Virus record (IMG/VR): IMGVR_UViG_3300047673_000075
Location: 1-38,134 of that record
DNA from: a virus
DNA length: 38,134 nt
Direction: 5' to 3' (one strand)
The position numbers and the translations under genes are program-made. Shown one piece after another: positions 12,039-23,962 of this stretch. The notes below the pieces were generated by a model. It saw only the letters and a program-made list of their open reading frames with translations. It did no database searches and was not told the DNA's origin. The number at the start of each line of letters is the position of its first letter. Within the stretch, counting starts at the first letter, position 1.

Positions 12039-13157
12039 TCAACCGGTGTGGTTAATTCGTTCAGAATTATTTGTGGCGATCGTCACCTTTATCGGCGCGA
12101 TTCCGCGGCTGTCGGAGTACATTTCAGCCATCGCATCGGTCATGTGACCGAGCAACGCCTTGGTGTCGATGCCACCTTGAGCGTCATAGAGCCGCTTCGA
12201 CAAACTGCGAATCTCGTGAAAAGTCGGCGCATAATCGTCGTTCGTAATGCCAGCGAGCGTGCGCGCATTTGCGAATGATTGACTGATACTTCCTAGCTTC
12301 ACATGAGTTCCAGTCTTCGCACGGCCCTGATTCCTGATGTGGTGAATCAGATACTTGCTCACGACTCCGGTCGATTTGCACTTTGCGATGACATCGCCGA
12401 GAGACATGCCTATCGCGTCGAGACGCAGCGCCATCGGAATTTCTATCTTGATAGACGTTTTCGAGCGCTGAAGAAGCACGACATCTCCAGACGAGAACGA
12501 GCGCTGCCAGCGGCCGATTGTCGATCGGTCCTGTCCTGATACGAGCGCCAACAGCATCGCGTTCTGGAGCCAGTCATTGACCTCCGGTGCCTTGTCGTAG
12601 ATCGTCTGGAACTCTTCGAGCGTCAGTCGGCGGCGCTTCGTCTTCGGAACCGGGCGCGACGTTTCCTTGGCCGGGTTCATCGTCGTGATCAGCCCGAGTT
12701 CCATCCCGCGCCGGCAGATTGTCACGAGGCGATTTCGGATCGATTGCGCCCAGCGCTTCTTTCCTTCCTTCACGATCGGCTCGATGAAGTCGGCGATATG
12801 CTTCGTCGTCAGCTTGTCGCACTCGATTGTGCCGAGCGCTTTCACGATGGCGCCGTCGACATAGCTGCGCGTCTTGAGCGTGGATGCCTTGACGCCTTCG
12901 GTCGGCATGCGGTCGATCAGATCAGCGATCGTCTTCTGCTGTTCCGTCAGTCGCTCGGCAAGTGTGCGTGTAACCTTAGCATTCGCCACGATCACATTCG
13001 CTTCCTGAGCCTGATAGATGGCCTCGGCAAGCGAGATTCGACCGAGTACATGCGTCTTTCCGTCACGCGGATCGCGCCAGACATAATAGCCGGGTCTCGG
13101 CTCGTGCAGATGCTCAGGCCAGTTTGCGCGTTTGCGGATGCGTGGTCGTGCAGCCAT
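12039..13157 (-). CDS. int: Tyrosine integrase, lambda-Int type (372 aa)
   Basis: The N-terminal arm-binding pattern PGYYVWRDPRDGKTHVLGRISLAEAIYQAQEAN resembles lambda Int. The C-terminal part carries FHEIRSL (HxxR) and LLGHMTDAMAEMYSD (H..Y). ATG at 13157 is chosen over the longer track ORF. Confidence 0.9.
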   Translation of the reverse strand: MAARPRIRKRANWPEHLHEPRPGYYVWRDPRDGKTHVLGRISLAEAIYQAQEANVIVANAKVTRTLAERLTEQQKTIADLIDRMPTEGVKASTLKTRSYVDGAIVKALGTIECDKLTTKHIADFIEPIVKEGKKRWAQSIRNRLVTICRRGMELGLITTMNPAKETSRPVPKTKRRRLTLEEFQTIYDKAPEVNDWLQNAMLLALVSGQDRSTIGRWQRSFSSGDVVLLQRSKTSIKIEIPMALRLDAIGMSLGDVIAKCKSTGVVSKYLIHHIRNQGRAKTGTHVKLGSISQSFANARTLAGITNDDYAPTFHEIRSLSKRLYDAQGGIDTKALLGHMTDAMAEMYSDSRGIAPIKVTIATNNSERINHTG

Positions 13158-13159
13158 GA

Positions 13160-13357
13160 TTACCTCGGGATGCGGGAAGCCAGCGACGGTCGCGTCTGGC
13201 GGTCCTGAAAGGTTGCATTCTCGTCGACATAATAAGCGCGGCCGACCTTCTGCGGTGGAGGGTATATGCGGCCGTCGCGAATCCAGCCGCGAGCTGTGGC
13301 GATTGCTGGAGGCGGATCGAACTGGCGCTCCAGCCATTTTTCGAGTCTGAGTTTCAC
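13160..13357 (-). CDS. xis: Excisionase, lambda Xis-like (65 aa), GTG start
   Basis: VKLRLEKWLERQFDPPPAIATARGWIRDGRIYPPPQKVGRAYYVDENA parallels lambda Xis LTLQEWNARQ..VRRWVRECRIFPPPVKDGREYLFHESA. GGGAGGAAAC precedes the GTG. Confidence 0.75.
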   Translation of the reverse strand: MKLRLEKWLERQFDPPPAIATARGWIRDGRIYPPPQKVGRAYYVDENATFQDRQTRPSLASRIPR

Positions 13358-20276: not shown

Positions 20277-20597
20277 TCAGATGGCGAGTTCGATTTCGGC
20301 CTTCACTTGTTCTTCCGTATCGCCTGCCCGAACGCGCCACGCAGCAACGTTCAGATTGACGAGACGCCATTTCGATGACTCATTCACCGTCGTGCCAACC
20401 TTCGGCTTCAGCGTCACGATGTTCAGCATCTGTAGCTTGCAAACCGCCTCGCGAAGTGCAGGACGGCTCACGTTGAGTTGCTTCGCCAGAACGTCTTGCG
20501 ACGGCAGCTTGACGAGGTCAGTCGCGATGATCAGATCGACGATGCGTTCGAGCGTGTGATCGACGACGGATTGGGTGTGCATAAAGGTGTGTTTCAT
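20277..20597 (-). CDS. Short GntR-like winged-HTH protein (106 aa), first gene of the early-left operon
   Basis: LPSQDVLAKQLNVSRPALREAVCKLQMLNIV matches the GntR N-terminal HTH consensus. ATG 20597 is preceded by GGAGAG. Confidence 0.6.
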   Translation of the reverse strand: MKHTFMHTQSVVDHTLERIVDLIIATDLVKLPSQDVLAKQLNVSRPALREAVCKLQMLNIVTLKPKVGTTVNESSKWRLVNLNVAAWRVRAGDTEEQVKAEIELAI

Positions 20598-20787
20598 GGT
20601 CTCTCCGTGTGCTTTAGCGGTGGGTCGTTCACACACGGCCCACTGGTAAAGCTCTTCCCCTCTGTCGCCTCGCCACCTGGGGTTTCAGTGGGTCTACGGG
20701 TCGGCACGATTGCAGCTCGGGCTAGGCATTCCCACCTCACGCTGGTGGGCTACTCGATGCGCTGGTGTTCGTTCCAGCCATGAGGTA

Positions 20788-20816
20788 ATACTACACAGAA
20801 CGTTGGTTAAAGACAA
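20788..20816 (-). promoter_or_regulatory. Early-left promoter (PL-like): -35 TTGTCT, 17-nt spacer, -10 TAGTAT
   Basis: Read on the minus strand as TTGTCT-ttaaccaacgttctgtg-TAGTAT. It shares extended blocks with the PR-like promoter. Confidence 0.55.
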
Positions 20817-20890
20817 ACAGAATGTGAGTCGAGCGCGCGTGATTTTTTTAATCGGATCGATATACCCGATAGCTTCGTTTCGTGTGGACG

Positions 20891-20914
20891 AAAAAAATCC
20901 CGCCGAAGCGGGAT
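20891..20914 (-). terminator. Intrinsic terminator ending the repressor-lipoprotein operon
   Basis: Minus strand ATCCCGC-ttcg-GCGGGAT followed by TTTTTT, 18 nt after the lipoprotein stop. Confidence 0.75.
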
Positions 20915-20931
20915 CTAGGGAGAGGCGGGGA

Positions 20932-21248: not shown

Positions 21249-21440
21249 TCAGTGTTTCCCCTTTTGGCCGGCGATCGTGCGCGCGGCCATCAGCAGATAG
21301 TAAGAGACCTTGGTTAGAACTTCGTCCTCCGTGCGCTCGCCGGTTTCCTCGGCCGCCGTCGCACGATTGGTCTTCGCCTTCCTATATTCGTTGAGGTCAA
21401 TTACTCGACGATCTTTTTTGGCGGTGTGTGGCTGCATCAT
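21249..21440 (-). CDS. Hypothetical protein (63 aa) in the immunity operon
   Basis: ORF between the repressor and the lipoprotein. Its start overlaps the repressor 3' end by 44 nt. Confidence 0.5.
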   Translation of the reverse strand: MMQPHTAKKDRRVIDLNEYRKAKTNRATAAEETGERTEDEVLTKVSYYLLMAARTIAGQKGKH

Positions 21441-21933
21441 GGGTTCCTGTGGCTTCTGCGAGGGCCGTTAGCAAATCATCGATTTCCTCAGTCATTTGCC
21501 CTCTGTCCATATATTGCACGCCCCATCCTTCTGCTGCAATTTCCATCGTCGAAAGCTGGTTTGCGAACAGTTTCCTCGCCTGTTCCCCGAAGCCGTCCAG
21601 ACGGGTGACACATAAGATCAGCGCCTGCGCTTCATGGGAAAGATGCCTTTTCTGGACTCTTTTCAGAGTTTCGTTCGGGCCATTTCCCAACAGTTGGTCG
21701 ACTGGCATATCGAATATCTGCTGCAGTTCCCACGCCCGAGAGGCCGGCGCACCGCCGCGCTGCTTCCAATTCGTGACCACGTTCGTGTGCACGCCAAGCT
21801 GACGCGCAAGCCAAGCCTGATCCCGCTCTAGGCGGTCCAGATTCGCCTGGATAACAGGCCATGTGATTTTGGTTTTCATGCGCGCCACGCTATCAACACG
21901 GTCTGTTTGACTCAACTCTTTTTCTGTTTGCAT
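21397..21933 (-). CDS. Phage repressor (CI-functional analogue), HTH N-terminal domain, with no recognisable S24 peptidase domain
   Basis: It is divergent from the Cro-like gene. HTH LARQLGVHTNVVTNWKQRGGAP. The start is uncertain: ATG 21933 overlaps the PR -35, and ATG 21879 is an alternative. Confidence 0.65.
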   Translation of the reverse strand: MQTEKELSQTDRVDSVARMKTKITWPVIQANLDRLERDQAWLARQLGVHTNVVTNWKQRGGAPASRAWELQQIFDMPVDQLLGNGPNETLKRVQKRHLSHEAQALILCVTRLDGFGEQARKLFANQLSTMEIAAEGWGVQYMDRGQMTEEIDDLLTALAEATGTHDAATHRQKRSSSN

Positions 21934-21956
21934 TCAACACTCATTTTGTGTAGTAT
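21928..21956 (+). promoter_or_regulatory. Early-right promoter (PR-like): -35 TTGCAT, 17-nt spacer, -10 TAGTAT
   Basis: TTGCAT-tcaacactcattttgtg-TAGTAT, 34 nt upstream of the Cro-like ATG. Confidence 0.6.
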
Positions 21957-21989
21957 GGGTCTGTCATCCACGCAACTCTGAGAGCAGAC

Positions 21990-23095: not shown

Positions 23096-23962
23096 ATGGC
23101 CAAATCCGAGGATAAAGCCGACGTCTGGATGCCGCTCTACATCGGCGATTACCTCGCCGATACGAGCCGTCTAACGACCGAGCAACACGGTGCCTATCTG
23201 CTGCTGTTGATGGATTACTGGCGCAATGGCCCCCCTCCAGACGACGAAGAAATTTTGCAAAACATCACTCGTTTGTCGAAGTTTCTTTGGAAGAAACACG
23301 GCCCCATTCTCAGAAAATTTTTTACGGTCGAAGAGGGCGTTTGGAAGCACAAGCGGATTGACGAAGAAATGACCAAAGCCTTATCCGACAAGGCTTTGGC
23401 ATCGGAGAAGGGGAAGAAGGGTGCAGAGGCAAGATGGGGAAAGAAGGATGCCACAGGCAATGCACAGGCATTGCCCGACGAATGGCCATCATCGTCACCA
23501 TCACCATCACCTATTCCTACTACTACCTCTACTGGTCAATCAATCGTCGTAGGTGCTAAAGCGCGTGCGAGCGATGACTCGATCCCGAAGAACGAGGCGG
23601 AATGGCTGCGGCACCTGTCGGCAAATCACGGCGTTGTCGCTGACCCGACGAGCGTCCATGACCGCAAGCGCTACTGGACGACTTTCGCCGCATGGGTCAA
23701 TGCCGGCGTTTCGACAGCGCAGGTCGATGCAGCCATTTCGAAGGCCTACCGCGAAGCGACAGAGCCGATTTCGAACATCGTCGCCTACGCGTCCAGGGTT
23801 CTGGATTCAATGACCGCCCCAACACAATCGCGACCTCGCAGCTACCACGACGAGCGCGCAGACACCATCGCAGGCCTGACCGGCAGGAGCCGAAACCATG
23901 AACCAGACGACGAACGCATCATCGATGTCACCGCAACAACCGTCGCAAGACTGGCCGGCTAA
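23096..23962 (+). CDS. Replication initiation protein with DUF1376 (YdaU-like) N-terminal domain, 288 aa
   Basis: VWMPLYIGDYLADTSRLTTEQHGAYLLLLMDYWRNGPPPDDEE...WKHKRIDEEM matches the DUF1376 pattern. Confidence 0.8.
   Translation: MAKSEDKADVWMPLYIGDYLADTSRLTTEQHGAYLLLLMDYWRNGPPPDDEEILQNITRLSKFLWKKHGPILRKFFTVEEGVWKHKRIDEEMTKALSDKALASEKGKKGAEARWGKKDATGNAQALPDEWPSSSPSPSPIPTTTSTGQSIVVGAKARASDDSIPKNEAEWLRHLSANHGVVADPTSVHDRKRYWTTFAAWVNAGVSTAQVDAAISKAYREATEPISNIVAYASRVLDSMTAPTQSRPRSYHDERADTIAGLTGRSRNHEPDDERIIDVTATTVARLAG

Follow-up and report, generated by a model that had tools for sequence, protein, structure and literature searches.

The window, by which we mean the whole stretch of DNA analysed here (38,134 bp), is given in its IMG/VR record as a complete phage with terminal repeats at its ends. 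On the minus strand, the order of features is a repressor gene, a 63-aa ORF, a lipoprotein gene, a terminator, the promoter PL, a leader and a gene encoding a GntR-type wHTH protein. Exonuclease and RecT genes lie downstream of the latter in the early-left operon, which is 8.5 kb long and reaches a 432-aa ORF (12039-13337) that is probably the integrase. The features needed to follow the locus are these:

21397-21933, minus strand: YdaS/Cro-type HTH repressor
20895-20916, minus strand: strong intrinsic terminator just 5' of PL, closing the immunity operon (repressor, 63-aa ORF, lipoprotein)
20788-20816, minus strand: PL, with -35 TTGTCT (20816-20811), a 17-nt spacer and -10 TAGTAT (20793-20788)
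20737-20781, minus strand: 14-codon mini-ORF, with AUG at 20781-20779 and UGA at 20739-20737, the latter in the loop of hairpin A
20595-20606, minus strand: Shine-Dalgarno sequence GGAGAG and ATG of the first early-left gene
20277-20597, minus strand: first early-left gene, encoding a 106-aa GntR-type wHTH protein (PF00392, E 6e-9)

Transcription from PL is predicted to begin with the A at 20781. PL scores 8/12, which is under the cut-off of our promoter scan. An alignment revealed a block common to PL (20845-20770, minus) and PR (21899 onward, plus), comprising TTCTGTTTG, a -35-like hexamer and TGTGTAGTAT. A sequence-only reading of this DNA had claimed a PL-like promoter with a start at about 20781, and this claim is now backed by homology to the PR block, the promoter of the cro-like gene, the start itself being a prediction. 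TCTGT(T)TG repeats are found in the promoter-operator block at both places (20770-20845, minus; 21899-21960, plus). The leader of the PR operon is only 35 nt long.

Relatives of the leader

Relatives were found by a protein-anchored search and with DNA patterns derived from the leader. Three close relatives carry the same leader (L002, L003 and L041). L003 and L041 have the order terminator, promoter, motif seen in the window, with promoters and repressors unlike the window's, and each of the four phages has a different first gene. The more distant phages are L080, L078/L107 (a Pararobbsia alpina prophage), L016/L076/L110/L111, L075 and L108. Five more distinct members came from a covariance model (R1), for which nine sequences were used, together with two less stringent patterns. 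These scored about 83 bits each (L114 and L115), about 29 bits (L116 and L122, group D) and 25.9 bits (L117, group E, with a genome GC content of 40%) with R1; L119, L120 and L123 carry identical copies of the L117 element. In total, the family comprises about 20 records and 14 distinct sequences, which form five groups (A to E) in genomes with a GC content of 40-66%.

A search of the bacterial genomes of 185,579 species returned a single pattern match, which was the Pararobbsia alpina prophage, and none of 150 genomes scored from the family of that Pararobbsia genome gave a match except itself, in a search of limited sensitivity. No similar DNA was found in GenBank phages or E. coli genomes, and plasmids yielded a 21-nt chance match only. 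Broader pattern searches returned mainly coding or chance matches. Neither the window nor 12 loci gave a match in Rfam 15 at gathering scores, and at E values up to 10 the element of groups A, D and E retrieved only noise. Searches of the open-access literature and of Rfam revealed no description of the motif, an absence that is no proof of its being unpublished. The RNA family is new to the catalogues searched.

Fold and covariation of the leader RNA

The first ~140-165 nt of the PL transcript very probably constitute a conserved, tertiary-structured non-coding RNA domain belonging to an uncatalogued family and present once per genome. The minus-strand RNA from ~20781 to ~20645 comprises the hairpins P0, P1 and P2 and an arm, P3, which is pseudoknotted to the 3' tail; the consensus element spans 110-165 nt. 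Its parts, with the adjoining hairpin B, are as follows:

20757-20781, minus strand: P0, 5'-terminal hairpin of variable sequence that includes the mini-ORF AUG (from per-sequence folds and alignments)
20731-20749, minus strand: P1, the same as hairpin A (6/6 pairs doubly changed, 73% of cells paired)
20704-20722, minus strand: P2, 6-bp hairpin (6/6 pairs compensatory, 98.6% paired)
20692-20702, minus strand: GACC-N4-GAC, putative bulged strand of a kink-turn-like loop (kept in 14/14 sequences)
20673-20691, minus strand: P3, 5-bp hairpin with a loop that begins GAA (3/5 pairs doubly changed, 97% paired)
20660-20672, minus strand: near-invariant CGAGGC followed by GACAGAG; CGAGGC is the putative non-bulged strand of the kink-turn-like loop plus a short C-stem
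20682-20679 with 20660-20657, minus strand: pseudoknot between the P3 loop and the 3' strand (3/3 pairs doubly changed)
20620-20643, minus strand: hairpin B

The fold is supported by covariation. In a nine-sequence MAFFT alignment, 90% of the cells were paired and 16 of the 21 pairs were changed on both sides, a result equalled by none of 500 shuffles; slid partners, used as the control, were paired in 25-43% of the cells. The alignment of 14 sequences, which was fitted to the covariance model and is thus biased towards structure, gave 89% paired cells and compensatory changes in 18 of 20 pairs (0/500 shuffles equal). The slid controls, which pair far less (24-43% for both alignments together), argue for a specific structural signal. 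The proposal from the sequence-only reading that a structured, cis-encoded leader RNA begins at the PL start is thus supported, and has been strengthened by covariation in 14 sequences. Both of the hairpins named in that proposal exist; A (P1) covaries and stays paired in the relatives, whereas the sequence of B is not conserved. Most of the covariation is carried by P0, P2, P3 and the pseudoknot, all of which lie beyond the earlier description.

The individual elements differ in how they vary. P0 is present in groups A, B and C, absent in group D and was not seen in group E; in group D, the RNA starts with GAAG immediately 5' of P1. The three closing pairs of P1 covary, with CCC/GGG replaced by CGG/CCG (B2), UCC/GGA (C1) or UCU/AGA, and the helix is longer in group A. 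Its loop is GNRA-like (GUGA or GUAA) in groups A-C. The heptaloop of P2 is conserved, reading RCUGNAA in groups A-C. Variants of CGAGGC occur in L114 and L115 only, and groups D and E have an extra 7-9 nt ahead of CAGAG. The pseudoknot pairs are C-G, G-C, A-U and U-A across groups A, B and E, the A-U of group E lying in the predicted register. A hairpin is found at the position of hairpin B in every relative, each time with a group-specific sequence, and group B has three hairpins there that covary within the group.

Between P2 and the 3' tail, GACC is paired with GGC(G) in the RNAalifold consensus, leaving GA opposite GA beside a 3-4-nt bulge. This arrangement fits the kink-turn pattern (CC, N3-4, GA versus GA, GG), and the residues are invariant, hence no covariation signal is possible for them. 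Because of the tandem G.A pattern, the GACC/CGAGGC loop can be read as a kink-turn-like bend, which would bring the P3 loop to the 3' strand.

Folded on its own, the window leader is unexceptional in energy (z = -1.19). Its minimum-energy fold has P3 and hairpin B replaced by stems over the Shine-Dalgarno sequence and the start codon. One alternative stem in the window, CCGUGUG/CACACGG (20637-20631 with 20611-20605), overlaps the Shine-Dalgarno sequence; a stem of this kind is missing in L002 and L003.

The leaderless 14-codon mini-ORF pointed out earlier is present, with its AUG 7 nt past TAGTAT and its UGA in the loop of hairpin A, but it is not conserved. It is reduced to AUG-CGC-UGA (2 codons) in L002 and L003, and it has 9 codons in L041, 8 in group E and ~48 in group C. 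The 5' AUG is missing in groups B and D, and the stop falls in different elements in different groups. From these comparisons, the mini-ORF does not appear to be a functional part of the leader; the AUG simply belongs to P0 or, in group A, to a possible pairing with the first gene's start codon. The two CACCAGCG and two GACCCAC words of the leader, also listed in the earlier reading, are likewise present, but they are missing in close relatives and are not above shuffles, being equalled in 11/100 and 20/100 shuffles of the window; these repeats are specific to the window's lineage.

The whole motif is spanned in group C by an ORF of 48-88 codons that opens at the 5' AUG (L075:10199-10465, minus; likewise L016 and L078). 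This ORF is probably spurious, although dual use is conceivable, and a protein-coding reading of the motif based on it was rejected, since the helices change by pair-preserving double substitutions and indels shift the frame between groups. Three other candidates were set aside as well. A C4/CI-like self-target was considered for L080 and L016, where a downstream GCCUCG complements CGAGGC, with no covariation in L114. The resemblance to boxA in the tails of groups A and D is not conserved, and CUGAUGA, taken as a sign of a hammerhead within the motif, is confined to group C.

Copy number, promoters and neighbouring genes

The motif is present in exactly one copy per record in 11 of 11 phage records searched with R1. 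A second, weak R1 match in the window (14 bits; 23670-23774, plus) lies within the DUF1376 replication gene of the early-right operon and has GCGACAGAGCCGAU; as a second copy it was judged a chance match, the GACC/P3 core being missing. A low-GC viral contig (L129:1464-1548, minus; 11.9 bits) has GACCC, a perfect 5-bp P3 and GGCGAGGCGA, with several hairpins upstream, and on these sequence features it may be a distant sixth group.

The position of the motif relative to the promoter is also shared. It lies 0-30 nt behind a sigma-70-like promoter, the promoter assignment for group C being not clear-cut. When five regions of 450 nt were scanned, each had one sigma-70-like promoter on the correct strand, against 0.1-0.4 expected, and the -10 hexamers of these five end 5-8 nt upstream of the first helix; in the window, P0 begins 7 nt after the end of the -10 hexamer. 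Sigma-70-like promoters, of which there are at least six different sequences, would put the start 0-5 nt ahead of the first helix in the window and in L003, L041, L114, L115, L116 and L122. The promoters of the relatives have other sequences and are stronger than the window's PL, and they stand at an equal distance from the motif.

Groups A and D, together with the group C members L075 and P. alpina, have the motif immediately after the repressor gene (with or without morons). The same site is occupied by nutL in lambda and by putL in HK022. In groups A and D, and in P. alpina and L016 of group C, the operon headed by the motif reaches RecT-type recombination genes. In group E, the motif heads a run of small early genes that diverges from the terminase genes. 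The first genes downstream are unrelated: some phages have a gene for a GntR-like protein or for a pentapeptide-repeat protein, others one of several small ORFs. The slot that the leader heads takes exchangeable accessory genes. For example, L041 has a pentapeptide-repeat protein gene (L041:6188-6877, plus) in place of the GntR-like gene behind the same leader. The flanking proteins are unrelated between groups, with the exception of RecT, and a BLASTP comparison of whole genomes at 1e-5 found no ORF family common to all five groups. The RNA is far better conserved than anything surrounding it. It follows that no conserved phage protein within reach of BLASTP at 1e-5 can be required by the RNA, and, as the groups span a GC content of 40-66%, its partner should be host-universal. 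Two giant ORFs similar to each other were noticed in group B (G159:C1:26911-37911, plus, ~3,660 aa) and group E (G152:C1:9778-17886, plus, ~2,700 aa).

There is no enrichment of intrinsic terminators in the operons downstream, nor any obvious one in the window's early-left operon. L041 and L117 have strong same-strand terminators ~4.2 kb downstream of the motif.

The group E motif is followed, at a distance of 7 nt, by a type III hammerhead-like element (L117:5070-5124; also in L119, L120 and L123). It scores 34.3 bits, versus the Rfam gathering score of 48.5, with E = 7e-6 for the region. Its CUGAUGA and GAAA cores and its GUA cleavage site are intact, its minimum-energy fold is a three-way junction, and its stem II opens with a U.U mismatch. 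The four group E contigs are identical, and thus offer no covariation on this element. If active, the hammerhead would separate the motif from the mRNA, which argues against purely cis translational roles, at least in group E.

Possible modes of action

The data fix the identity of the element, not its action. The nearest known parallel is the put RNA of phage HK022, which binds the beta-prime zinc-binding domain of RNA polymerase and suppresses termination. To our knowledge, no other phage RNA that modifies RNA polymerase in the absence of a protein has been well characterised. put is ~70 nt long, consists of two stem-loops with a short triplex (stem I) and occurs twice per genome; putL begins at +3 of PL and works untethered (PMC9378689). 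The leader RNA resembles put in being a cis-encoded RNA at the very start of a lambdoid PL transcript in the absence of an N protein and of any apparent phage protein partner, and it is conceivable that its function, too, survives separation from the mRNA. It differs in its size (110-165 nt), its four or five helices, its pseudoknot and kink-turn-like loop, and its single copy: put is found behind both PL and PR, whereas the leader RNA is found behind PL only. With R1 and filters off, the best match in the whole HK022 genome was 11.5 bits in a tail gene, with nothing at PL or PR, and the first 3.5 kb of T7 and the first 5 kb of phiKMV gave no match.

Other structured RNAs are also comparable in part. 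The EAR RNA of Bacillales eps operons and the antiterminator RNAs of conjugative elements (conAn, Tn916) are complex structured RNAs that promote read-through, and they resemble the leader RNA in serving long operons of accessory or mobile DNA; they differ in belonging to other hosts, with no homology expected, and in being internal or, for conAn, protein-requiring. In SAM-I-type aptamers, a hairpin loop is brought into pairing with a strand further downstream by a kink-turn bend, and the junction is invariant; the leader RNA, in contrast, has no Rfam match and no gene association pointing to a ligand, and is located at +1. Long structured leaders heading early or immunity-controlled operons are also seen in the lambda N leader (nutL and an RNase III hairpin) and in the P1 c4 and P4 CI RNAs, but the leader RNA lacks the boxA, boxB and N of the former, and neither a match to the C4/IsrK families nor a downstream complementary target was found for it.

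We tentatively favour a put-like action, while considering its chances to be well below even. The RNA would fold on emerging from host RNA polymerase and would act via a host-conserved partner, most likely that same transcribing polymerase, such that elongation across the long early operon withstands pausing as well as termination, whether Rho-dependent or intrinsic. A covalent tie to the mRNA would be unnecessary, which fits the hammerhead-like ribozyme 3' of the group E motif. This reading is favoured because the element sits at +1 of PL, depends neither on promoter type nor on the downstream genes, has no phage partner, heads a long operon and is compatible with release by a ribozyme. A put-like element was among the possibilities raised from the sequence at the outset; what survives of it is the position and, as an analogy, the possible mechanism, since the fold is another one. 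Against it stand the single copy per genome, whereas HK022 needs putL and putR, the lack of sequence or structure similarity to put and of enriched intrinsic terminators downstream, and the architecture itself, in that a kink-turn with a pseudoknot and ~25 invariant junction residues are at least equally typical of riboswitch aptamers and ribozymes.

That architecture leads to the idea of a riboswitch-like sensor, which we regard as a serious alternative, somewhat less probable than the put-like action, in which the P1-P3/pseudoknot domain would bind a small molecule or ion reporting the state of the host and would control the early operon via the variable hairpins 3' of the domain or, in group E, gate the adjacent hammerhead. 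A conserved multi-helix domain with covarying helices, a kink-turn-like bend and an invariant junction is what is seen in aptamers such as SAM-I, the element is located in a 5' UTR without a phage protein partner, and the minimum-energy fold of the window covers the Shine-Dalgarno sequence and the start codon. However, the window's alternative pairing is missing in L002 and L003, no expression platform or alternative pairing is common to the groups, and the downstream genes have no common function; moreover, a sensor has no need of a fixed +1 position, and in group E the ribozyme would cut it from the mRNA. Such a cut is what would be expected if the element were a separate small RNA of the early phase that works in trans or as a decoy, sequestering or mimicking a host factor or defence component, and is freed by the hammerhead where there is one (group E) and by host RNases in the other groups. 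The hammerhead-like ribozyme directly 3' of the motif in four group E contigs, the single copy per genome, the transcription of the element before anything else, its place ahead of hypervariable accessory-gene cassettes and the lack of a phage protein common to the groups all agree with this. We regard this, too, as a serious alternative, with a probability close to that of the sensor. Against it, groups A-D have no terminator or recognisable processing site after the motif, in group A the first gene's ribosome-binding site is 40-60 nt away, and no complementary target was found in the window. The same neighbourhood could point to a new self-cleaving ribozyme class or to one half of a ribozyme pair; the size, pseudoknot and invariant core would fit, and Weinberg et al. 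reportedly discovered new ribozyme classes in 2015 through the neighbourhood of hammerheads. We consider this improbable, given that the hammerhead accompanies one of the five groups only, that Rfam ribozymes gave no match, that the CUGAUGA of group C is not conserved elsewhere, and that an RNA starting at +1 would gain nothing from being cleaved at its 5' end.

Three further explanations would give the leader a local or protein-dependent role. In the window, the 5' UCAUGG (20776-20781) can pair with CCAUGA at the start codon, and this recurs in L002 and L041. RNAalifold closes the group A leaders with a 5-bp helix that joins the 5' end to the start codon, UCAUG(G) with CAUGA, and one compensatory change, from U-A to G-C, is seen in L041; a 5' stabiliser or translational operator could be built on such a helix. 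CAUG is self-complementary, however, so that the pairing comes cheap, the first genes differ, the RNA would be cut off in group E, and the invariant junction residues would be unnecessary, all of which leave this role with a small probability. The position, which is the same as that of lambda nutL, would suit a nut-like site on which an antiterminator protein of the phage acts. This suggestion from the initial reading is now very improbable: there is no N-like gene, boxA and boxB are not conserved (the likeness to boxA being limited to unconserved tails in groups A and D), the first gene is different in every group, and the five genomes share no protein at BLASTP 1e-5. The other mechanism then suggested, in which termination at the leaderless mini-ORF melts hairpin A and thereby couples attenuation to translation, has in its favour that groups A, C and E carry an AUG at their 5' end or close to it. 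It hardly deserves credence, because the ORF is conserved neither in length (2, 2, 9, 14, 8 or ~48 codons, with stops in different elements) nor in sequence, groups B and D have no AUG, and P1 covaries as an RNA and not as codons.

To return to the put-like reading, the element may, with the reservations set out above, represent a new autonomous class of phage RNA that would reprogram a machine universal to hosts: either a second protein-free antiterminator riding on the polymerase, unrelated to put in structure, or a phage-borne sensor, spread by modular exchange. Its carriers would then be temperate Burkholderiaceae phages and unrelated low-GC phages of lytic appearance, in one lineage of which the RNA is freed by a hammerhead, a picture that is as tentative as the reading itself. 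A family backed by covariation, absent from Rfam and with defined predicted 5' ends is tractable by experiment, and the kink-turn-like loop with its pseudoknot offers a compact target, small enough for structural work. Were the leader a sensor or decoy, it would have few counterparts among phages in using RNA to read or block host physiology within the first seconds of infection. If, instead, a second, larger and unrelated RNA does act as put does, at the same position and across hosts, RNA-only control of early transcription would be a general strategy of phages.
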